DNA of 64,000 nucleotides from Bradymonadia bacterium. Lineage in GTDB: Bacteria > Myxococcota_A > Bradymonadia > UBA7976 > UBA1532. The stretch lies in contig JBKAGE010000034.1 in the NCBI GenBank assembly GCA_046290225.1, forward strand, positions 343,598 through 407,597, read 5' to 3'. The position numbers and the translations under genes were made by a program. A model generated the notes under the pieces. It made no database searches. It was not told where the DNA came from and saw nothing but the letters and a program-made list of their open reading frames with translations. Positions 4,717-45,174 of this stretch are shown here, piece after piece; position 1 is the first letter of the stretch, and every line of letters begins with the position of its first letter.

Positions 4717-5898
4717 TCAGTTGTGTCCGGTCGCAGCGTCGGGATCGAGAAAACGACCCGTGGCCTCATTGGACTCGTGCACGCCGGTGTCTTCATCGTG
4801 CACGTGGGTCTCGTTCGTGTGGGCTGCTCTTTCGAGCGACGCGAGCGTCTCGAGACCTGGCAGAGGGCCGGTCATGTCCACGAGGCGGGTGTAATTCACC
4901 CTCAGGCCTGTGGGCGTGTCGTCATCTGAGGGGCCCACGAGATCGAACTCTTGATAGCGCTCGTCGTGCTCCATGCGCTCACGGGCGAAAATACGGCTGA
5001 GCGTACGCCCCAGGTCGAGGGGCTTGAAGCGCGGGAACCGATCCCGCCGGTAGACCTCGAGCTCGTCTGCGAAAGCCTCGGCAGTGGCGTATCGTGCCTC
5101 TGCATCCTTCGCCAGAGCCCTGGCGAGGATGCGCTCGAGGGTGGCATCGAGGCCAGGGAGATCGGCGACGCCGGGGTGAGGCTGATGGCGAATCGCCTCC
5201 ATGACCTCGACGTCTTCAGATCCCTTGAAGGGGGTCTCGCCCGTGAGGGTTTCGAAGAGCACGGCCCCTGCTGCGAAGACATCGGAGCGCCGGTCGAGCC
5301 GTCGCCCCATGGTCTGCTCCGGGCTCATGTAGCGCACCTTGCCCTTGATGACCCCCACCCGGGTCTTCACCCGGTTGAGGCGCCCCTTGGCGATGCCGAA
5401 GTCGATGAGCTTCACCTCGCCGCGGTAGCTGACCATGATGTTCGACGGGCTGAAGTCGCGGTGCACGATGTCGAGGGGCTCACCGGTGAGGTCGACCTGC
5501 TCGTGGGCACAATGCAAGCCCCTCAGCGCCTGTTCCACCGCCCACAAGCCGTACTCCACGGGCCAGGGCATCTCCCGAGCCCGGCAGCGACGCAGCGCAG
5601 ATCGTAGATCTACCCCTTCGACGTACTCCATCACCAGGAAGTACTCGTCTTCGAGGTGGCTGAACTCGTACGTGCGGGTGATGTTGGGGTGATCGAAGAG
5701 GCACGTGATCTTGGCCTCGTCAATGAGCATGTCGATGAACTCTTGATCGGCGGTGTAGAACGACAGCAACCGCTTGATGGCCACAGCCTCGAGCTCACCG
5801 TCGGCGTCGCGCCGGGCGGCACGATAGATCTCCGCCATTCCCCCAGAGGAGATCCGGTAGAGCAAACGATAGGGTCCAAGTGATCGAGCGCGGCGCAC
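4717..5898 (-). CDS. serine/threonine protein kinase
   Basis: Hanks kinase motifs: GxGxxAxIY glycine loop (SSGGMAEIYRA), AIKRL, HRDFSPSNIMV, DFGIAKG, SPE. Confidence 0.85.
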   Translation of the reverse strand: MRRARSLGPYRLLYRISSGGMAEIYRAARRDADGELEAVAIKRLLSFYTADQEFIDMLIDEAKITCLFDHPNITRTYEFSHLEDEYFLVMEYVEGVDLRSALRRCRAREMPWPVEYGLWAVEQALRGLHCAHEQVDLTGEPLDIVHRDFSPSNIMVSYRGEVKLIDFGIAKGRLNRVKTRVGVIKGKVRYMSPEQTMGRRLDRRSDVFAAGAVLFETLTGETPFKGSEDVEVMEAIRHQPHPGVADLPGLDATLERILARALAKDAEARYATAEAFADELEVYRRDRFPRFKPLDLGRTLSRIFARERMEHDERYQEFDLVGPSDDDTPTGLRVNYTRLVDMTGPLPGLETLASLERAAHTNETHVHDEDTGVHESNEATGRFLDPDAATGHN

Positions 5899-15610: not shown

Positions 15611-16798
15611 ATGGGGAACATCAAAGACTGGATGGTGGTGGCCCTGGCCGCCGGTGCCCTGACCCTGACCGCGGGCTGTGACGACGACAGCACCAGCGAC
15701 GACGGCGCCGGTGGCGCCGGTGCCGCAGCTGGCGCAGGTGCTGCTGGCGGTGGCGCTGCTGGCGCCGGCGGTGGCGTCGGTGGTGCAGGTGGTGGTGCTG
15801 CTGGCGCCGGCGGTGGCGCAGCTGGTGCTGGCGGTATGGCCGGCGGTGGCGGCATGGGTGGTGAGGGCGGCATGGCCGGTATGCCCGGCGGTGCTGGCGG
15901 CGAAGGCGGCATGGGCGGCGATCCCGGCCCCGTCGACAAGTGCGAGGACGGCGCGGGCGACATGACCGCTCTGGGCGCCATCAACGAGTTCGGCCCCAGC
16001 AGCCGCCTCGTGGGTCTCGCCATCCCCGAGAGCGCCGAGGCCGCCACTGAGGCCAACTGTGGTCTCGTGGGCCCCTCCAACGGCTCGGGCCTCTCGGCTC
16101 TGCTCGACCTCGTGGGCGGCGAAGGCCTCGACGAGTTCGTGCAGCCCGACGAGAACGGCGACATCAGCCTCCTGATCTTCTCCCAGTTCGCTGGCATGGC
16201 CGAGGGTGACACCATCCCCGGCACCGACACTGCCGACATCAACCTGTACGTCGGTGTGCAGGCCGAGGATGGCTTCCGCTACGCCAAGTCCTCCTTCGTG
16301 GATTCGGATCCCGCCAACGGGCCCCTGATCTCCTTCGACGGCGCCAACATCTGCGACAACGGCTACCTCGAGGCCGGCCCCTCGGTCTTCACCGTGGACC
16401 TGCCCCTCGTGGAAGGTCTGCCCCTGGCCATCAGCCTGGAGCAGGCTGCCCTCCGCGGCTTCACCGCCGTGAACGGCTCCGGCCTCGACTTCAACGACGG
16501 CGTGATCGCAGGCTACCTGACCCGCGACACCCTGCTCGCCCTGGTGAACGGCATCATCACCGCCTGCGCCGCTGACGAGCCCCCCTCCCTCTGCGACACC
16601 GTCGGGCCCCTGCTCGGCAACGATCCCGAGGCAGGCCTCGACCTGCTCCTGAGCTTCATCGGCGACTTCGAGGCCGCCGTCGAGGGCAACGGCAACGTGC
16701 GCGACTGCGACGCTGGTGTGCCCGACGACTGCAACGCCATTGGCGTGTGTCTCCAGGTGGAGATGGCCGCCGAGACCGTGGTCGGCATCGAAGACTGA
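15611..16798 (+). CDS. Gly/Ala-rich lipoprotein, function unknown
   Basis: signal peptide with lipobox LTLTAGC; roughly 80-aa G/A low-complexity linker followed by a Cys-containing, Asp-rich globular part. Confidence 0.65.
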   Translation: MGNIKDWMVVALAAGALTLTAGCDDDSTSDDGAGGAGAAAGAGAAGGGAAGAGGGVGGAGGGAAGAGGGAAGAGGMAGGGGMGGEGGMAGMPGGAGGEGGMGGDPGPVDKCEDGAGDMTALGAINEFGPSSRLVGLAIPESAEAATEANCGLVGPSNGSGLSALLDLVGGEGLDEFVQPDENGDISLLIFSQFAGMAEGDTIPGTDTADINLYVGVQAEDGFRYAKSSFVDSDPANGPLISFDGANICDNGYLEAGPSVFTVDLPLVEGLPLAISLEQAALRGFTAVNGSGLDFNDGVIAGYLTRDTLLALVNGIITACAADEPPSLCDTVGPLLGNDPEAGLDLLLSFIGDFEAAVEGNGNVRDCDAGVPDDCNAIGVCLQVEMAAETVVGIED

Positions 16799-16800
16799 TC

Positions 16801-16864
16801 TTTGCTCCGACGCTCCGGCGGCGCCAGCCGCCTTTGCTCCGACGCTCCGGCGGCACCAGCCGCC
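16801..16864. repeat. tandem direct repeat, 2 x 32 bp (tttgctccgacgctccggcggcRccagccgcc)
   Basis: two adjacent copies with a single mismatch, immediately after the lipoprotein stop codon. Confidence 0.9.
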
Positions 16865-17040
16865 GTGAGCGCGGCGATTCCGCGCACAGCTGCGACCTTT
16901 CCGTCCTCGGGGTAGCGCTGCTACCCCTGCGGGTGAAAGCTCGCATCTGCACACGAACTCCCCACCCTCACGACGACTGTCGCCACCTCCGCGTCTCCGC
17001 GGGGCACGTGCATGACTGGCTCTGATTTCGTTGGGGGCAC

Positions 17041-17768
17041 CAGATGAAGCAGTGGGCAGTCGCGGAGGCTGCGCTGAGCCTTTGTAGGCAGTCATCGCTT
17101 CGCTCTGCCTGCGTAGGCGCCGAGCCTTCGGCACATCTTCGATGCGCCTCGTCTGGCGCGTACACGTTCGGGCATCCGCTTCGCGGACACCCTTCCGGGT
17201 AGGCAGGGTCGCTCAGGGCTTCGCCCTTCTTGCTCGCTCCCCTGCGTAAAGAGCTTCTTCTGTATCTTGTTGCTGATGTCTGCCGGGACTCGACCTACCG
17301 CGAACCTACAAGCCTCTGAGTGTGAATGCTCGGCGAAAGCCCCAACAGCGCCAGAATCAGTGCTAGAGCGCCATAAACAAATAAACTGTTAGGGAGCGCG
17401 CAGGATGGTGTTTTGAGATGGGCTTCGGTGGGCGCAGGCGATGCCGGCTAAAGCCTTTAAAGCATCGTCGAGTACCAGCGAAGCTCATATCGGAGCACCA
17501 GACAAGCGTTCGCAGCAGGTATTTGTTTATGGTGCTCTAAGTCACACCAGAACTGACTTTTTACGCAGGGGAGCGAGCAAACAATGCGTCAGCATTGAGC
17601 GACCTCTGCCTACCCGGAGGCCTGCTCGCCTCAGCGAGCGTGCCGACGTGTACGCAGCTCCAAGGCGGGCCGAAGGCCGGCCGTCGGCAGCTGCCTACGC
17701 AGGCAGAGCGAAGCGATGACTGCCTACAAAGGCTCAACGCAGACTCTGCGACTGCCCATTCAACTGTG
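17041..17768. repeat. long imperfect palindrome (inverted repeat arms of roughly 350 bp, about 85-90% identity) with an AT-rich centre; MITE-like or hairpin element
   Basis: 17041-17118 is the reverse complement of 17694-17768 (for example ctttgtaggcagtcatcgcttcgctctgcctgcgtagg versus cctacgcaggcagagcgaagcgatgactgcctacaaag); nested matches gctcgctcccctgcgtaaa/tttacgcaggggagcgagc and cgccataaacaaata/tatttgtttatggtg; centre near 17440 is GC-poor. Confidence 0.8.
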
Positions 17769-17807
17769 TATCAGCGTTGAGTCCGTAACGCCCAAAGCCC
17801 GTCGGCA

Positions 17808-19973
17808 TCAGGGTCGGACACACCGAAAATCGTCCGCCGCCATCACCCCATCAGCGCTCTTGTCGATCAGCTCGATCTGTACTTCCCGGCCTCGCAGTGA
17901 TCGCGTGTCGAGGCTCACCCGTCGCAGCGCTCGCCCTGAGGGCACCGGCTTGCGGTGAAGCAGCTCCCCATTGGAGAGCAGCCGCACCTCGAGGCCTGGC
18001 TTTCGATCCCCTGCAGCCATCCACGTGAGGCGATCACACTCCAGAGTAAACGGCGCAGACGTCAGGCGACCCGCTTCGTCGGCGCGGTTGCTGACCATCA
18101 CCCAGTCTCCCTGTACCCCCGAAACCCTGCCTGAGCGCAGGCGGGCCCGTCGCTTTTGAGCAGGAGCCTCGGAGAAGCCCCCCGAAGCAGTCCAGCCCGT
18201 TGTCTGTCCTGCCTCGAAGTTTCCCGTGATGCCTGGGGCGAGCTCCCGGGGCTCTGGATCTTGCGCCAGCCACAGCTCTGCCGGCCTCACCAGGAAGCCA
18301 GTCTTCGCTCGAAGCACATCTTTGTCGGGCCAGACAAGCCGATCAGCGAGGTAGTACTGGCGACCAAGGCCCGGCACTCGATTGCGCTCATCCACGACCA
18401 CGGCAGCCCACTCCTTCTTCCGCAGACGGGGGCCGAGATCTTTGAGGCCCTTCATGAAAGCGACGTCCTGGATGCCCATCTGGTGCGTGTGCACCTGCCC
18501 GTCCCGGGTGTAGGCATAGAATGGGTGTGCGGGCATGAAAACCTTGCCCTTCACCTCCGACAGCTGACGGTCGAGCTGGGCCACAGCCTCGTGATCTGCG
18601 CTGCCCGGCACTTGCTCTGCGGGGTTGTATGCCAGGGCGATGAACTGCAGGGCCAGTGCAGCGGGCACGAGGGCAGTCCACCGATGACTTGAAGGTTGAG
18701 GTGTGCCTTCGGCATCACCTGCTTGGGTCAGATCCCGGACGGCCAGCGCGATCAGGATGCTCCCGAAGACGCTCAAGGGCATGAAGCAGTTGCTGTAGGC
18801 CCATTGGGTGCTGTGATTGAGCGCGCTCGAGCCTGCACCGGCGACGAACATCCAGAGCCAGAAGCCATGGGTGCGGGGGGCGATAGCCACACCGCGTCGA
18901 GCCACACGATAGGCCACCAACATCAACACCATCACCGCGGGTGGCACCATGATGAGCCAGTGAGGCTCTACATAGAACAGCTCCCGGTAGTACATGTGAG
19001 GCATGTCCTTCCAGCCGCTGTTGGCCCGCAAGAACCACGCGTAGGTCCAGTGGGCCGACAGGAGCAGGCTCGGCAGGACGATGGGCACCTTGTATCCAAA
19101 CCACAGCAGTGGGATCAGCAGGAGCACCGGCGCCAGACACAGCACATCTCGCCAGTACTCCATCAAGATGTTCTTCCAATAGAACAAGTGCCCTTGGTGA
19201 CCCTCGAAGGTGTACACCCAGAACCAGCCATCAGTGGCCTGGTTGGCCACGTACACACCAAGAGCACCCAGCCCGAAGGCAAGTGCGCCGAACACTACGC
19301 CGTGTCGCCAGTTGCGCCACAGCAAGTACACCGCGATGGCGGGGGTGAACACGCTGGCAGTCTGCTTGGTGAAGAAACCCACCACACACAGCACAGCGGC
19401 GAGGATGACGCCTCGCCATCGCGGCATCGTGTAGGCGACGTACACCGCCCACAGCATGATGGTGATGAACAACGCGTCGGGGCGGACCAGGTCATAGAAG
19501 GCCCCGTTGAGCCGGAAGAGCGAGGCGTAGATGCCCATGGCCAGCAAGCCGAAGCGCACCCCAGCCTCCCGACGGCCGATGAGGAACAAACAGTAGAACG
19601 TCGACAACGTCGCCGCGAGGGAGACGAGCCGGCCCAACGTGAAGGATAGTCCCCCAGTGATCTGGGACAGACCCCACAACGTGATCGGATACCCCGGTGT
19701 GTAGAAAAATGGCACGAAGTCAGCGCTGGGCTCGGCGTAGATCGGCTGGCCCGAGGCGAGGCGGGCGGCGTGGGCCAGCATGCCCCCCTCCATCCACTCC
19801 ACCTCGAAGGGGTAGAACACCCTGATCAAGGCGACGACCACGAAGATCACCACATAGATCAGCCCCATGGTCACGGCGACGTCGAGCAGGCGCCGAGTGA
19901 TGGGGGGCGTGTTGAACGGCTCAGTCACGGCAGCTCGCGTCAACGGAGGCTCCAGTGAGGTTGATGTCTGCAT
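17808..19973 (-). CDS. polytopic membrane protein, putative GT-C family (PMT/ArnT-like) glycosyltransferase with C-terminal periplasmic domain
   Basis: more than 10 predicted TM helices in the N-terminal 450 aa; soluble C-terminal roughly 250 aa; start assigned to internal Met (MQTSTSLEPP) to avoid overlap with the divergent gene, so start is uncertain. Confidence 0.55.
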   Translation of the reverse strand: MQTSTSLEPPLTRAAVTEPFNTPPITRRLLDVAVTMGLIYVVIFVVVALIRVFYPFEVEWMEGGMLAHAARLASGQPIYAEPSADFVPFFYTPGYPITLWGLSQITGGLSFTLGRLVSLAATLSTFYCLFLIGRREAGVRFGLLAMGIYASLFRLNGAFYDLVRPDALFITIMLWAVYVAYTMPRWRGVILAAVLCVVGFFTKQTASVFTPAIAVYLLWRNWRHGVVFGALAFGLGALGVYVANQATDGWFWVYTFEGHQGHLFYWKNILMEYWRDVLCLAPVLLLIPLLWFGYKVPIVLPSLLLSAHWTYAWFLRANSGWKDMPHMYYRELFYVEPHWLIMVPPAVMVLMLVAYRVARRGVAIAPRTHGFWLWMFVAGAGSSALNHSTQWAYSNCFMPLSVFGSILIALAVRDLTQAGDAEGTPQPSSHRWTALVPAALALQFIALAYNPAEQVPGSADHEAVAQLDRQLSEVKGKVFMPAHPFYAYTRDGQVHTHQMGIQDVAFMKGLKDLGPRLRKKEWAAVVVDERNRVPGLGRQYYLADRLVWPDKDVLRAKTGFLVRPAELWLAQDPEPRELAPGITGNFEAGQTTGWTASGGFSEAPAQKRRARLRSGRVSGVQGDWVMVSNRADEAGRLTSAPFTLECDRLTWMAAGDRKPGLEVRLLSNGELLHRKPVPSGRALRRVSLDTRSLRGREVQIELIDKSADGVMAADDFRCVRP

Positions 19974-30988: not shown

Positions 30989-31034
30989 CTAGCCTCAGAG
31001 CGCCGACAGAGAGGCACCTGCTCAGCGCAGACAA

Positions 31035-31151
31035 CGAGGCGTAGCTCAGCCAGGGAGAGCGCCCGCTGTTGAAAAATGGTGTCCGACTGTCTCGACGTCT
31101 TACTTCGCTTTGGGGGCGGGAGGTCGCAGGTTCGAATCCTGCCGTCTCGCA
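31035..31151 (+). ncRNA. tRNA-like RNA (tRNA-Pro-derived) with a ~43-nt insertion at the 5' side of the anticodon loop; candidate Y-RNA-like tRNA mimic
   Basis: 7-bp acceptor CGAGGCG/CGTCTCG, D arm GCTCAGCCAGGGAGAGC, T arm GCAGGTTCGAATCCTGC, anticodon stem CCCGC/GCGGG flanking the insert, then a TTTGGGG loop identical to the tRNA-Pro(UGG) loop. Confidence 0.6.
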
Positions 31152-31223
31152 GTGTGCGCTGAGCAGGTGTCTCTCTGTTGGCCATTGGAGAAACCGGAAG
31201 AAGTTGCTGTTCGGCCCATGCAT

Positions 31224-31332
31224 CGAGGTGTAGCTCAGTCTGGTAGAGCGCTTGATGATGATGTCCGACTGCCTTGATGTCTTACTTCGCTTTGGGTGCG
31301 AGAGGTCGCAGGTTCGAATCCTGCCACCTCGA
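31224..31332 (+). ncRNA. tRNA-like RNA with a ~38-nt insertion in the anticodon arm (same conserved motif); candidate Y-RNA-like tRNA mimic
   Basis: acceptor CGAGGTG/CACCTCG (perfect), D arm GCTCAGTCTGGTAGAGC, T arm GCAGGTTCGAATCCTGC; insert contains GTCCGACTG...TGTCTTACTTCGC followed by TTTGGGT. Confidence 0.6.
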
Positions 31333-31382
31333 TGGATGCGCCGAGCAGGATCTTCCTTCGGGTCGTGGGGCTGCGCCTCTTC

Positions 31383-31489
31383 GGGGGTGTAGCTCAGTGG
31401 TGAGAGCGCTATTACAGATTTCCGACTGTCTGGATGTCTTACTTCGACTGTCAATCGAGAGGTCGTGGGTTCGAATCCCACCGCCCCCG
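31383..31489 (+). ncRNA. tRNA-like RNA with a ~40-nt insertion in the anticodon arm (same conserved motif); candidate Y-RNA-like tRNA mimic
   Basis: acceptor GGGGGTG/CGCCCCC (one GU pair), D arm GCTCAGTGGTGAGAGC, T arm GTGGGTTCGAATCCCAC; insert TTCCGACTGTCTGGATGTCTTACTTCGACTG. Confidence 0.55.
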
Positions 31490-31553
31490 CTCAGCGCAGC
31501 CCCACGACATTTTCGTACGACGCAGTGACTCGAGATCGATGCGCCGTGCTCAT

Positions 31554-31627
31554 CGGAGTGTAGCTCAGCCTGGGAGAGCCGACGGTTTGGGGCCGTAAGG
31601 TCGCAGGTTCAAATCCTGCCACTCCGA
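31554..31627 (+). tRNA. tRNA-Pro (anticodon UGG)
   Basis: 74-nt cloverleaf: acceptor CGGAGTG/CACTCCG, D arm GCTCAGCCTGGGAGAGC, anticodon loop TTTGGGG, T arm GCAGGTTCAAATCCTGC; no encoded CCA. Confidence 0.8.
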
Positions 31628-31733
31628 CAGTGTTTTTCAGATCCTGCCCTTCGGGCGCCCCTCCGCTCCTACGGCTTCGCCTCCGTCGGCTGCGGGGCGT
31701 CCGGCCGCAGGCCGGACAGGATCGCGAGTGTTT
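31628..31733 (+). repeat. structured ~100-bp repeat unit A (multi-hairpin, UUCG tetraloop, GUCCGGCC-GCAG-GCCGGAC hairpin)
   Basis: three near-identical copies in the window (also 31726-31830 and 32061-32165); outer stem GATCCTG/CAGGATC. Confidence 0.75.
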
Positions 31734-31830
31734 TTAGGATCTTGCCCTTCGGGCGCCCCTCCGCTCATACGGCTTCGCCTCCGTCGGTTACGGGGCGTCC
31801 GGGCACAGGCCGGACAAGATCGCGAGCTCA
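31726..31830 (+). repeat. structured ~100-bp repeat unit B (tandem to unit A)
   Basis: about 90% identical to unit A; same hairpin layout. Confidence 0.75.
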
Positions 31831-31860
31831 CGCTCGCTGGTTCAGCCAAGGCGTTTTGAC

Positions 31861-31975
31861 TGCGCCGTGATGGTTCGGGTGAGCTCATCCACTCAGGCTT
31901 CCGACTGACTGGGTGTCTTACTTCGACTGAAACTCCAAGAATGTGGGTGGGCTCTCTCGAGCCATCACGGCGCTG
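31861..31975 (+). ncRNA. stand-alone copy of the conserved CCGACTG-N6-TGTCTTACTTCGACTG motif enclosed by a perfect 12-bp terminal stem (GCGCCGTGATGG/CCATCACGGCGC); candidate small structured RNA
   Basis: direct sequence observation; same motif as in the three tRNA-like insertions. Confidence 0.45.
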
Positions 31976-31986
31976 TCAATACTCAT

Positions 31987-32060
31987 CGGGGTGTAGCTCA
32001 GCCTGGAAGAGCGCACGGTTCGGGTCCGTGAGGCCGCAGGTTCAAATCCTGCCACCCCGA
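31987..32060 (+). tRNA. tRNA-Pro (anticodon CGG)
   Basis: 74-nt cloverleaf: acceptor CGGGGTG/CACCCCG, anticodon stem CACGG/CCGTG, loop TTCGGGT, T arm GCAGGTTCAAATCCTGC. Confidence 0.85.
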
Positions 32061-32165
32061 CAGTGTTTTTCAGATCCTGCCCTTCGGGCGCCCCTCCGCT
32101 CCTGCGGCTTTGCCTCCGTCGGCTACGGGGCGTCCGGCCACAGGCCGGACAGGATCGCAGGCTTC
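32061..32165 (+). repeat. structured ~100-bp repeat unit C (third copy, again directly 3' of a tRNA-Pro)
   Basis: about 92% identical to unit A. Confidence 0.75.
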
Positions 32166-32217
32166 GCCTGCTGCCCATTTCCGCGTGCTGTGGTGACAAC
32201 GGCACTCCACCTGACCA

Positions 32218-32340
32218 CAGATGACTGTTGGTTTGGGTGCATCAACCCGACCAGGAGTCGGCACTTTGTGTGTCAACTCTTAGATGTCCAACTGACCGGG
32301 TGTCTTACTTCGACTGATGCATTCAAACGAGCAGTCATCT
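32218..32340 (+). ncRNA. second stand-alone copy of the conserved motif (GTCCAACTGACCGGGTGTCTTACTTCGACTG) enclosed by a 9-bp terminal stem (AGATGACTG/CAGTCATCT); candidate small structured RNA immediately upstream of rsr
   Basis: direct sequence observation; internal hairpin TTGGGTGCATCAACCCGA. Confidence 0.45.
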
Positions 32341-32360: not shown

Positions 32361-34169
32361 GTGACTGAGCGGAATACACCCGCTCGACTGGAGGATGACA
32401 TGACTCGCGTGTTGAAGACTCAGAACATGAAGCAGTGGCTGACCCAGGGCTGGATCAGCACCTACGAGGGCGCGCCTGCCTACGACTACAGCGACACGCA
32501 CCCGCTCATCCACTTGGTGTTCACCATGGGCTCGGCCCTGTTCACCGACGGCTTCTATGAGACTGAGCAGGCCCAGGTCCGCACCTTCGCACAGTCCCTG
32601 CTCCGGGCGGCCCAGGTCGACCCCAAGTTTCCCTGGCAGTACGCCGCGTGGATGCGTGACCCCAAGCGCGGCAAGGGCAACCGGATCCAGGGCTCCCTGG
32701 CGCCGGCGCTGCTCGACGCCCTGTTGCCCAAGGATCTGCGAGACGAGGCAATCGTCGCCCAGTACACCGCCCTGGCTCTGAGCCATCGGCCCGATGACGT
32801 CACCGCATGCCTGACGCACTACGAGCGGCTTGGCCTCGGCCGCCCCTCAAAGGCGGTGCGGCAGGGCATGGCGCTGGCTCTGACGAAGTTCGACGAGTAC
32901 CAGCTGCTCAAGTACACCGGCAGCCGCCAGAAGGTACGCCTGTGCGATGTGATCTTGATGGTGCGCGAAGAGCTCGAGGCCCTCAGTGATGGTGGCGCTC
33001 TGGCGCTGGCTGTCGGTCGGTACCTGCACGCCCCCACACGATCACGGAAGGATCACCCCTCCCTCGATCGCATGCACCTGACCCGAGCGCGCCGCGCGCT
33101 CTGGGCGATGCCGCCCTCTGGGGCGCTGTCGCCGGAGCTTCCGCTGCAGCTCGAGGCCTCACGGGTGACCTGGGAGCAGGTGCTCAGCCACTTCGGTGCG
33201 GGCAATGATCCGAGCGTGAAGCGCCGCCGTAAGGCAGTGTGGTCGGCGCTGCTCTCCGTGCGCGGGCTGGTACCCGACACTGCTTTGCTGCGCAACGTGC
33301 GCAACATGGTGGAGGCGGGTGTCTCTGCGGATCAACTCACCGAGGTGGTCTCTCAGCGCCGGTTCGACAAGGTCTGGCCGCACCAGGTCTACGCGGGCTA
33401 CAAGGCCGCGCCTCAGCTCGGCGCCCACTTCGAGGCGATCTTCAGCCGCACCCTCGATCGGCTCCCCCTCGGGCGCCATCTGGGCATCGCTGACGCCTCG
33501 GGCTCGATGATGGTGAAGGTGGGTGGCTCGAAGGGCTCGCTCAACGCCATGGATGTGGCGCTGTGCTTCACTGCCATCATGAGCGAGAGCTCCGGCCTCG
33601 GCGCCTCGTTCTCTGATGGCCAGTTCGCGCAGTGGTCTGGCGGCAAGTGCCTCTCGATCGCTGCCCGTGGGCAGCACGAGGGCGCCCTGAAGTTCGCTCA
33701 GAACCCGGCCCTGCGCCGAGGTATGGGCGGCACTCAGGTCTTCGGTGCCGTGATGGAGCTGATCAAGTGGCTGGTGGACCACCCAGAGGTGACCCCGCCG
33801 GACTGCTTGTGGTTCTTCTCTGATATGCAGTTCCACCCGGCGGCGGGCGCGCTCAAGAGCCAGCCCAACGTCATCACGGAGCTGTCGAAGATCCACGGCG
33901 TGTCACTGCAAGGCCCGCCCCTCGAGGCGGCCCTGAAGCTCTACCGGAAGGCCATCGGTCCGGTGGACGTGGTGCTCTGGAATCTGGCTGCCTATGCGCC
34001 TGTGCCGGTGCCCGCGGACATGGAAGGTGTGCTCTTGGTGAGCGGCTTCGACACCAACACTTTCGACACCGTCAGCCGCTGGCGACAAGGGCTGCCGATG
34101 TCCGGTGAGGGTGCGCCGTCGGTGGAGGAGAGCCAGGAGATCGTTCTGGATAAGATCCGCGCGTTCTGA
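32361..34169 (+). CDS. rsr: Ro60-like ribonucleoprotein (TROVE domain plus C-terminal vWA domain with MIDAS), Rsr homologue
   Basis: TROVE-like N-terminal block LIHLVFTMGSALFTDGFYETEQ (compare Ro60 LCFGSEGGTYYIKEQ); C-terminal vWA with MIDAS LGIADASGSM; size and architecture fit Ro60/Rsr. Confidence 0.7.
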   Translation: MTERNTPARLEDDMTRVLKTQNMKQWLTQGWISTYEGAPAYDYSDTHPLIHLVFTMGSALFTDGFYETEQAQVRTFAQSLLRAAQVDPKFPWQYAAWMRDPKRGKGNRIQGSLAPALLDALLPKDLRDEAIVAQYTALALSHRPDDVTACLTHYERLGLGRPSKAVRQGMALALTKFDEYQLLKYTGSRQKVRLCDVILMVREELEALSDGGALALAVGRYLHAPTRSRKDHPSLDRMHLTRARRALWAMPPSGALSPELPLQLEASRVTWEQVLSHFGAGNDPSVKRRRKAVWSALLSVRGLVPDTALLRNVRNMVEAGVSADQLTEVVSQRRFDKVWPHQVYAGYKAAPQLGAHFEAIFSRTLDRLPLGRHLGIADASGSMMVKVGGSKGSLNAMDVALCFTAIMSESSGLGASFSDGQFAQWSGGKCLSIAARGQHEGALKFAQNPALRRGMGGTQVFGAVMELIKWLVDHPEVTPPDCLWFFSDMQFHPAAGALKSQPNVITELSKIHGVSLQGPPLEAALKLYRKAIGPVDVVLWNLAAYAPVPVPADMEGVLLVSGFDTNTFDTVSRWRQGLPMSGEGAPSVEESQEIVLDKIRAF

Positions 34170-43359: not shown

Positions 43360-45174
43360 TTGAGGCCCAGTGGGGTTATCCTCCCGGGGCACTCTGACCG
43401 CCAAAGGCCCCTCTTGAGCCAGCGACCCGTCCCTTTTGGCAAATATCTGCTCCTCGAGCGCATCAGCGTCGGCGGCATGGCCGAGGTCTTCAAGGCCCGT
43501 ACGTTCGGTGTGCAGGGCTTCAGCAAGCTGGTGGCCATCAAGAAGATCCTGCCGCACCTCGCCGAAGATGAGCAGTTCGTCGACATGTTCATCGCCGAAG
43601 CCAAGATGGCGGTGCAGCTCACCCACACCAACATCGCCCAGATCTACGATCTCGGCTGCATCGACAACGATCACTACATCGCCATGGAGTACGTGAGCGG
43701 CCGTGATCTGCTGTCGCTGCACAACCACTTCCGCAAGACCGGCCGCAAGCTGCCTGTAGAGCTGGTGGCCTACATCGGCGCCCGCATCGCCGAGGGCCTC
43801 GATTACGCCCACAACAAGAAGGGTGCCGATGGCCGGCCGATGAACCTCGTGCACCGGGACATCAGCCCCCAGAACGTGCTCATCAGCTACGACGGCGCGG
43901 TGAAGTTGATCGACTTCGGCATCGCCAAGGGCAGCCTGCAAGGTCGCCAGCAGACCCAGGCGGGGGTGCTCAAGGGCAAGTTCGGCTATATGAGCCCCGA
44001 GCTCGTCACCGGCCAGGAGATCGACCACCGCAGCGACATCTTCGCCCTGGGCACGGTGCTCTACGAGCTGCTCACCAGCGAGCGGCTGTTCCTCGGCGAG
44101 TCCGACTTTGCCACTCTGGAACAAATCAAAACCTGCGATATTCCCCCGCCCAGCGTTCGATCCCCTGAGGTGTCCCCGGCCCTCGACGACATCTTGATGA
44201 AGGCCCTCACTCGAGATCCGAACGATCGTTACAGCCGGGCCGCGGAGATGTCCGAGGCCTTTGAGCGGATGCTCCGAGAGGTGGGCCACCATCACCCCAT
44301 GAAGGCCCTCGGGCACTGGATGCAGACCAGCTTTCGCGAAGAGCGGGCCAAAGAGGTCAGCCGCAACGAAGCCTGGATGCGCATGGAGATGTACCCGGAC
44401 GACGAGGAGGAAGAAGAGACCTCGCTCTGGGACGACGCCCCCGACGTCGCCGCCGCAGCCAACCCTGAGAAGCCCACCTGGCTCTCACCAGAGGAAGCGC
44501 CGGCGCCGAACCTGCCCCTCGTGGGGACCCAGGTCGGCGACGATCCCATGGCCCTGCCCAACGCGCCGACCCCCACTCCAGATCCGCCTCCTCGGCCCAT
44601 CACCATCGATCACGCCCCCCGAGGGCAGCGGCGCCTCTTTCTGGTGGCCTCGGCCCTCGTGGTGATGGTGCTCACCGGTGTGGTGGTGGGCTGGCTGGTC
44701 CTCGAGCCCGCCCCCCCCAAGGCAAAGTCGGGGCTGGTGTTGCACATCGAACCCCCCGAAGGGGTCTCGATCTTCGTCGACAACACGCTCGCGGGCGAGG
44801 GCAGTCCATTCATCCAGAAGGGCTGGGCGCCTGGGGCCTACGCCGTGCGGGTAGAGCGCAGCGGGTACACTGCATGGAGGCGTCGATTCCTGCTCAAGCC
44901 CGGGGAGTTCGCCGAAGAGCGTGTGGTGCTCAAGCCCACCGCAGGCCTGCCGGGCAAGATCCGGTTCGTCACCGAGCCTGACGACGCACAGATCCTCATC
45001 GATGGACGACCGCTCCGTATCGATCAACGGTATGGATATGTGAGCCTCGACAGCAGCCACCCCAGCACCATCGAGATCAGAAAAACAGGCTACCTGCCCT
45101 ACCGGGAGCAGCTCACACCAGAGCCTGGGGGCAAACAGACCCGAACCTTCAGGCTCGAGCCCGCTCAGCCCTGA
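43360..45174 (+). CDS. serine/threonine protein kinase with Pro-rich linker, TM helix and C-terminal PEGA-like extracellular domain
   Basis: GGMAEVFKA, AIKKILP, HRDISPQNVLI, DFGIAKG, SPE; TM LFLVASALVVMVLTGVVVGWLVL; PEGVSIFVDN...; TTG start (alternative TTG at 43414). Confidence 0.85.
   Translation: MRPSGVILPGHSDRQRPLLSQRPVPFGKYLLLERISVGGMAEVFKARTFGVQGFSKLVAIKKILPHLAEDEQFVDMFIAEAKMAVQLTHTNIAQIYDLGCIDNDHYIAMEYVSGRDLLSLHNHFRKTGRKLPVELVAYIGARIAEGLDYAHNKKGADGRPMNLVHRDISPQNVLISYDGAVKLIDFGIAKGSLQGRQQTQAGVLKGKFGYMSPELVTGQEIDHRSDIFALGTVLYELLTSERLFLGESDFATLEQIKTCDIPPPSVRSPEVSPALDDILMKALTRDPNDRYSRAAEMSEAFERMLREVGHHHPMKALGHWMQTSFREERAKEVSRNEAWMRMEMYPDDEEEEETSLWDDAPDVAAAANPEKPTWLSPEEAPAPNLPLVGTQVGDDPMALPNAPTPTPDPPPRPITIDHAPRGQRRLFLVASALVVMVLTGVVVGWLVLEPAPPKAKSGLVLHIEPPEGVSIFVDNTLAGEGSPFIQKGWAPGAYAVRVERSGYTAWRRRFLLKPGEFAEERVVLKPTAGLPGKIRFVTEPDDAQILIDGRPLRIDQRYGYVSLDSSHPSTIEIRKTGYLPYREQLTPEPGGKQTRTFRLEPAQP

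Follow-up and report, generated by a model that had tools for sequence, protein, structure and literature searches.

Bacterial MITEs and foldback elements include the Correia/NEMIS repeats of Neisseria (Correia, ca. 100-155 bp) and the ERIC/IRU repeats of enterobacteria (ERIC, ca. 127 bp). REPs are palindromic units of 20-40 bp that carry an unpaired GTAG tag and occur as tens to hundreds of dispersed copies; they are mobilised by RAYT (TnpA-REP), and the stems of their sub-families vary through complementary changes (PMC3733652, PMC2817692). Besides, there are the “TIRtrons,” families of long terminal inverted repeats that flank Y1 transposase genes, some of them with self-complementary tracts, of which gene-less dimers also occur (PMC3733652).

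We describe here a locus that is reminiscent of all of these and that differs from each of them. It lies in a 64-kb stretch of DNA from a Bradymonadia bacterium, the whole of which was analysed and is referred to below as the window. Positions 17053-17758 form an imperfect palindrome of 706 bp and 60% GC that can be read directly from the sequence and was also recovered by a repeat scan; it is real and highly non-random. The palindrome and its surroundings are composed as follows.

15611-16798, plus strand: left flanking gene, coding for a putative lipoprotein of 395 aa that belongs to no Pfam family
16800-16863, plus strand: tandem hairpin unit, 2 x 32 bp, directly after the lipoprotein stop codon
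16841-16995, plus strand: extended hairpin of 155 nt, just 3' of the lipoprotein gene, apex near 16918
17053-17758, no strand: whole imperfect palindrome, tips 5'-TGGGCAG...CTGCCCA-3'
17053-17262, plus strand: left arm, 210 nt, mirror of 17548-17758
17053-17118, plus strand: left terminal block, 63 of 66 bases equal to the mirror block, with a perfect 44-mer (17075-17118) inside
17263-17363, plus strand: segment of the left half only, 101 nt without a mirror, inserted here or deleted from the right half
17364-17383, plus strand: left copy of the inner inverted repeat, A+T-rich, TAGAGCGCCATAAACAAATA, 20 nt, 95% complementary to its mirror at 17520-17539
17384-17519, no strand: centre, a diverged palindrome (ca. 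65%) with its axis near 17451/17452
17520-17539, minus strand: right copy of the inner inverted repeat, 20 nt, 95% complementary to 17364-17383
17548-17758, minus strand: right arm, 211 nt, whose minus-strand reading matches the left arm
17693-17758, minus strand: right terminal block, perfect 44-mer at 17693-17736; 17709-17758 confirmed by an independent Illumina contig
17808-19973, minus strand: right flanking gene, a PMT_2 / ArnT-family glycosyltransferase, stop codon 49 bp from the palindrome

When 16781-17820 was compared with the window by BLASTN, the two arms gave a gapped alignment (17053-17253 vs. 17557-17758) with an E value of 1.5e-34. Over ca. 210 nt the arms share 86% of the aligned bases, or 77% when the gaps are counted (204 columns). 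This similarity comes in blocks, 95% in columns 1-66, 58% in the 81 columns from 67 to 147 and 82% in the 57 columns from 148 to 204, and the tips are the best-conserved portion, with an outer inverted repeat (17053-17118 and 17693-17758) of 66 nt that is 95% complementary. Such a blocky pattern, highest at the tips, is what might be expected if particular sites were constrained. Other mirrored pieces detected by the repeat scan are 17230-17262 with 17548-17580 and 17183-17206 with 17606-17629, and the exact mirrored runs measure 44, 21, 13, and 13 nt, the 21-mer being found at 17230-17250 in the left arm and at 17560-17580 in the right one. Beyond the tips there is no sharp stop. The symmetry fades and can be traced weakly outward in 17041-17048 and 17759-17766 (CAGATGAA and TTCAACTG), where seven of eight bases agree with an offset of 4 nt. 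The centre is weakly palindromic, and none of 500 shuffles reached its observed score. Folded as one strand, the whole region yields -464 kcal/mol, a z of -19 relative to dinucleotide shuffles. The palindrome is poorer in GC than the window (64.5%), and in 17380-17540 its GC content falls to 52%; over stretches of 100-160 nt the lowest values are 48-50%.

A preliminary description of this DNA had proposed an inverted-repeat structure between convergent genes, and both parts are borne out, the first by the scan, the alignment and the fold, the second by the gene coordinates (15611-16798 on the plus strand vs. 17808-19973 on the minus strand); even its outer limits agree with the weak extension of the symmetry. 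The identity of 85-90% that it gave for the arms is right for the outer ca. 210 nt only; the similarity comes in blocks of 95, 58, and 82%, and 101 nt of the left half have no mirror. Among the several perfect segments of 20-48 bp that it mentioned, two reach 20 nt (44 and 21 nt), the remaining runs being of 13 nt each. The GC dip is real but smaller than claimed, as a centre of ca. 45% had been set in a genome of 68%, against the 52% and 64.5% that we measured. Finally, the two mirror ORFs do encode a common peptide, both containing TQAERSDDCLQRL (AERSDDCLQRL).

The flanking gene pair is syntenic and convergent in MAGs of Myxococcota/Bradymonadia at only ca. 55-58% protein identity. The spacer measures 10-110 bp in four of these loci (L007, L009, L010, and L012) and is occupied by an unrelated gene in two (L004 and L006). 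The spacer of the closest relative found, L019 (78% protein identity in a neighbouring protein), matches the window only from 16812 to ca. 17000, at 68%. Nothing similar to the palindrome is present in L019, neither the flank nor the arms aligning significantly with its spacer, which has its own tandem hairpin repeats (2 x 19, 2 x 23, and 2 x 37 nt). Being absent from L019 and from the more distant syntenic relatives, the 0.7-kb palindrome appears, from these sequence comparisons, to be specific to this lineage. The right boundary is not comparable with L019 because there the glycosyltransferase has lost its C-terminal domain. The C-terminal ca. 150 residues of PMT_2 (window 17808-18270) are kept here and in L003, L004, L006, and L007 and are missing in L019, L009, L010, and L012, a patchy presence that points to evolutionary instability where this gene ends and the spacer begins.

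On the other side of the spacer, the 155-nt hairpin is kept in L019 at ca. 68% sequence identity, and 16 of its 52 consensus pairs are compensatory, when controls gave 4.4-8.5 and none of 300 randomisations reached 16. The hairpin probably represents a 3'-UTR or terminator structure that has been conserved. One of the Illumina contigs dealt with below ends at 16916, exactly at the apex of this hairpin. The tandem unit at 16800-16863 consists of two 32-bp copies, 97% identical, of a GC-rich hairpin with a TTTGCTCC tail, and L019 has analogous units.

The palindrome itself is non-coding. Its ORFs have a GC3 of 0.50-0.70 vs. 0.77-0.84 in real genes, that is, no coding bias, and are flat by codon position where the neighbouring genes have a GC of ca. 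0.7, 0.45, and 0.8. None of the 10 ORFs matches Pfam at E <= 1 or is present in a collection of 15 billion proteins, and the concatenated six-frame translation has no homologues at E <= 0.01. A coding gene is ruled out by the flat GC3 and by the lack of Pfam matches and homologues; a decayed gene was discarded as well, the spacer-encoded proteins of L004 and L006 failing to match by tblastn. Rfam 15 gave no match at E <= 1 across 16000-19000. Consensus scans of 16500-18100 revealed no promoter-like or terminator-like sites, and this same interval contains no U-tracts of the kind that an intrinsic (Rho-independent) terminator has. Around the A+T-rich block of 20 nt, inspection by eye showed no conserved match to sigma-70 or sigma-54. 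A replication origin or terminus was also considered and rejected, as the GC skew does not switch near 17 kb.

When the two arms were analysed with RNAalifold, four local, GC-rich stem-loops were predicted per arm, each mirrored in the other arm.

17056-17112, plus strand: stem-loop 1 (SL1) of the left arm, 20 pairs, nearly invariant between arms
17113-17163, plus strand: stem-loop 2 (SL2) of the left arm, 16 pairs, 6 of them compensatory with respect to the right arm, closing GTAGGC...GCGTAC
17165-17197, plus strand: stem-loop 3 (SL3) of the left arm, 9 pairs, 3 compensatory
17200-17248, plus strand: stem-loop 4 (SL4) of the left arm, 16 pairs, 2 compensatory, closing TAGGCAG...CTGCGTA; the perfect 21-mer 17230-17250 falls partly in its 3' side
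17562-17612, minus strand: stem-loop 4 of the right arm (RNAalifold consensus), with the perfect 21-mer 17560-17580 inside
17615-17648, minus strand: stem-loop 3 of the right arm (RNAalifold consensus)
17650-17698, minus strand: stem-loop 2 of the right arm (RNAalifold consensus)
17699-17755, minus strand: stem-loop 1 of the right arm (RNAalifold consensus)

The consensus fold comprises 61 pairs, and although 46 columns are substituted, both arms form all 61. Changes on both sides affect 11 of the 61, a covariation that only two sequences underlie. We compared this figure with four controls in which the structure was predicted anew after permuting the substituted bases, shuffling all columns, shuffling the columns of SL2-SL4 or swapping the states of the arms columnwise. 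These gave 3.0-5.3 compensatory pairs and never more than 10, so 11 was not reached in any of the 300-500 trials; the built-in shuffle of the tool gave 5.5 and its slid-partner controls 0-2. The consensus energy is -81.9 kcal/mol vs. -48 to -64 in the randomised controls. In the middle third of the arms the complementarity from arm to arm goes down to 58% and the local pairing within each arm is kept at 100%. The folding of a single arm is barely better than that of shuffled GC-rich sequence (z = -1.1 and -2.1). G-U pairs favour neither strand, and the consensus energy is equal on both.

This compensatory conservation of local hairpins between the two arms is the most notable feature of the palindrome. 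The diverged stretches preserve the same local hairpins, something that would not be expected of an inverted duplication in neutral decay. Since each arm has kept its own pairing where the arms have diverged, the conserved entity seems to be the set of small hairpins and not the long duplex from arm to arm. With two sequences only, hairpin-templated mutation without selection could be an alternative source of the compensatory changes.

The arms also contain repeated motifs, the most conspicuous being the following one.

17084-17091 and 17199-17206, plus strand; 17606-17613, 17691-17698, and 17720-17727, minus strand: GTAGGCAG motif (motif count)

Five of the six occurrences of GTAGGCAG in the window (1.2 expected) fall inside the palindrome, and in the other fetched loci the sole match is in L002, a copy of the same right tip. 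The longer form GTAGGCAG-N2-3-TCGCT is found twice per arm with a spacing of 114-115 bp, and SL1 and SL4 have a common tail, TCGCTC..CCTGCGTA. Several stem-loops are closed by one short stem, GT[A/G]GGCAG ... CTGC[C/G]T[A/G], and three hairpins per arm begin with GT[A/G]GGC(AG), in units of 33-57 nt whose GTA is base-paired in the consensus fold. The left tip (17052-17059) has the sequence GTGGGCAG, mirrored at the right tip (17752-17759, minus strand) by ATGGGCAG. The repeated subterminal motif and the 5'-TG...CA-3' tips resemble the multi-site ends of transposons.

A MITE, as a non-autonomous derivative of a DDE transposon, should be small and non-coding, occur in several copies, share its ends with an autonomous parent element and have terminal inverted repeats directly flanked by a target-site duplication (TSD). 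The palindrome has the repeats (66 nt at 95%; ca. 210 nt at 77-86%), is non-coding and measures only 706 bp. However, no direct repeat adjoins the repeat boundaries, and no TSD beyond chance is found. The best candidate is a 5-bp CGTTG (17029-17033 and 17775-17779) located 16-19 nt outside, and ca. 1000 boundary pairs should by chance alone yield about one match of this sort. There is no second copy in the window, where the BLASTN search with 16781-17820 matched only the two arms, and with a covariance model of the arm neither the window nor 14 related loci yielded another homologue. Exact words of the conserved blocks gave no matches either, for a 26-mer in 185,579 GTDB representative genomes, for a 23-mer of that block in IMG/VR or JGI metagenomes and for a 21-mer from a different block in JGI metagenomes, searches that diverged relatives would escape in each case. 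BLASTN in “distant” mode matched no plasmids or phages. No transposase was seen among the annotated neighbour genes and no RAYT (Y1 HUH transposase) among those with a Pfam label.

The MITE-like element of the preliminary description is thus right as to the look of the structure, which is that of a foldback or MITE, but the label is not established, as no second copy, TSD or homologue was found. Of the checks that it suggested, the copy-number BLASTN, within the window, matched only the arms, and the inspection of the ends for short direct repeats gave nothing better than CGTTG. A single copy with no TSD and no homologues, the outcome that it had named as contrary to a mobile element, is what we obtained in the window and in the exact-word, plasmid and phage searches. 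The fallback that it offered for that outcome, a simple local inverted duplication, is too simple for arms that are blocky and whose diverged stretches keep their hairpins through compensatory changes.

[quoted passage not shown] Two Illumina-only Logan contigs from this run are 100% identical to the window, one ending at 16916 and the other starting at 17709. The latter includes the outermost 50 nt of the right arm, and 16917-17708 is spanned by neither. The start at 17709 would be within 2-3 nt of the branch that a k = 31 graph is predicted to have from the perfect 44-nt inverted copy. This contig runs unbroken from the unique flank through the right tip (17709-17758), which would argue against other near-identical copies in the sample. 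Long palindromes of this kind break short-read assemblies, and here the Illumina contigs halt and resume on either side of it. That the palindrome is a fold-back chimera of a Nanopore-based assembly strikes us as barely conceivable. The sample was indeed assembled from Nanopore reads (PMC9872673), and the Illumina contigs retrieved leave the interval unspanned, but the arms are not copied from the flanking sequence, 50 nt of the right tip are included in an Illumina contig that breaks about where the 44-nt copy predicts, and the arms differ by compensatory changes rather than by random errors.

Within the window Logan contigs end at 5393, 16916, 17709, 31626, ca. 32075, and ca. 56320. Several of these ends correspond to internal repeats, namely two kinase paralogues (5378-5471 and 43844-43937), duplicated tRNA-Pro genes and the palindrome arm. 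The tRNA-Pro genes belong to an array of tRNA-like RNAs at 31000-32340, with five sites matched by the Rfam tRNA model. Two of them are ordinary tRNA-Pro genes and the other three (31035-31150, 31224-31332, and 31383-31489) are 107-116 nt long with an insert of ca. 36 nt. The first two of the three are flanked by complementary stems of 37-40 nt, and the conserved unit TCCGACTG..GATGTCTTACTTCG is present five times. The gene next to it (32361-34169) codes for a TROVE-domain (Ro60-like) protein. The array and this gene resemble bacterial Y RNAs, of the YrlA type, adjoining rsr.

How could a structure like this palindrome have originated? We lean, tentatively, towards a lineage-specific foldback insertion of hairpin modules, probably the relic of a non-autonomous element, which would at most act as a symmetric hairpin barrier between the convergent transcripts. 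Its origin would be a non-autonomous mobile or foldback element made of two mirror-image, transposon-like ends with little between them, which may have entered the spacer between two convergent core genes and would now be single-copy or inactive. The tips, one inner block and the 20-nt A+T-rich site are kept near-identical between the arms, and the intervening sequence has drifted yet forms the same local hairpins. In the single-stranded state, i.e., in read-through RNA of either gene or in replicating DNA, each arm could fold into the same series of hairpins, so that the structured 3' barrier may be equivalent for both convergent transcripts. With its diverged centre and its asymmetry of 101 nt, so long a palindrome would be tolerable for the chromosome. 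It is also possible, if doubtful, that the origin was local and never included a mobile element. In this clade, spacers would accumulate duplicated GC-rich hairpins of the terminator type, and one array would have been inverted-duplicated and kept as 3'-end or termination structures of the two convergent mRNAs. The same spacer does hold the 2 x 32-bp tandem hairpin unit and the 155-nt hairpin that covaries with L019, whose spacer has in turn its own tandem hairpin repeats of 2 x 19, 2 x 23, and 2 x 37 nt. The hairpin modules within an arm have head and tail motifs in common, the symmetry fades gradually at the ends, and neither a TSD nor another copy was found. However, for a local origin ca. 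350 bp of arm sequence would need a source, and none was detectable in the relatives or the window; the lipoprotein gene, moreover, already has hairpins of its own 255 bp before the palindrome. It also has to accommodate the absence of U-tracts, a centre with lower GC than its surroundings and tips that are the best-conserved part, as is typical of element ends.

A purely neutral relic seems unlikely to us. An old inverted duplication, or a dead foldback, would be decaying with no function, hairpin-templated (quasi-palindrome) mutation during replication having produced the compensatory changes and gene conversion between the arms the identical blocks. This would fit a single-copy sequence without homologues or TSD in the searches made, arms that fold no better than shuffled sequence and a covariation seen in two sequences only, but it fits badly with 61 of 61 consensus pairs intact in both arms in the face of 46 substituted columns and with a strongly blocky conservation that includes a short isolated 20-nt A+T-rich site. 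Two mirror-image genes for structured small RNAs of ca. 200-300 nt, transcribed outward from or inward to the A+T-rich centre, would explain why both copies keep the four-hairpin fold with compensatory changes and why the conserved 20-nt A+T-rich block is placed symmetrically about the centre. We regard them as improbable, as promoter-like and terminator-like sites were not found in the scans, Rfam gave no match, the covariance model detected no other homologue in the window or the 14 related loci, G-U pairs prefer no strand with the consensus energy equal both ways, and the folding energy of a single arm is unremarkable. Very improbable indeed is a functional long duplex, be it a ca. 350-bp hairpin RNA from which small RNAs are processed or a recombination hot spot in the form of a DNA cruciform. 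The whole region can be folded into one hairpin (-464 kcal/mol, z = -19), but with a complementarity of 58% in the middle third and ca. 65% in the centre, the 101-nt asymmetry and the local pairing within the arms fully kept, the long hairpin RNA precursor and the cruciform put forward in the preliminary description are both weakened.

We give little credit, as yet, to a bolder idea, namely that the palindrome and the 155-nt hairpin represent an undescribed class of hairpin-mosaic foldback modules maintained by selection in Bradymonadia, either as ends of mobile elements or as an RNA module. Were this the case, one version would be the ends of a single-stranded-DNA mobile element that recognises hairpins closed by GT[A/G]GGCAG, and the other a symmetric RNA module that determines where both convergent transcripts end and how stable they are. 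If the palindrome is mobile, Bradymonadia, a poorly sampled class, would have a first described repeat family, and ends made of structure-conserved hairpins could indicate the moving enzyme. If it is of local origin, the spacers of convergent genes in GC-rich genomes would grow via hairpin duplication, and the hairpins would be kept through compensatory change.

Coming back to the known systems, and keeping to the relic of a foldback insertion as our favoured reading, the palindrome is like bacterial MITEs in being non-coding, intergenic between gene 3' ends, foldable when transcribed and absent from related genomes, and in having terminal inverted repeats with the highest conservation at their tips. 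It is unlike Correia and ERIC in its much greater length, with arms of ca. 210 nt in 706 bp, and unlike bacterial MITEs in general in that its arms are arrays of local hairpins, that no TSD or second copy was found and that no parent transposon is known. With the TIRtrons it has in common long inverted repeats with self-complementary tracts and the lack of a gene, but there is no Y1 transposase gene near it and no sequence relationship. It occupies the same position as hairpin-rich bidirectional terminators or 3'-UTR structures of convergent genes, both transcripts would read the same hairpins, and the 155-nt covarying hairpin is adjacent; unlike terminators, however, it has no U-tracts, is far longer and has an A+T-rich centre and conserved blocks outside the hairpins. 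From the REPs it differs in its units of 33-57 nt, in a GTAG that is paired in the consensus fold, in a motif confined to one locus (in the window and the fetched loci), so that the dispersion typical of REPs and BIMEs is not seen, and in that no RAYT gene was seen beside it. Nevertheless, like the REP/BIME/REPIN sequences it is made of short GC-rich palindromic units in both orientations, 3' of convergent genes, and like the GTAG/GTGG-tagged REPs its units start with GT[A/G]G and its stems differ by complementary changes. This palindrome is apparently an orphan among the intergenic palindromic or foldback elements, a general kind that is already known.
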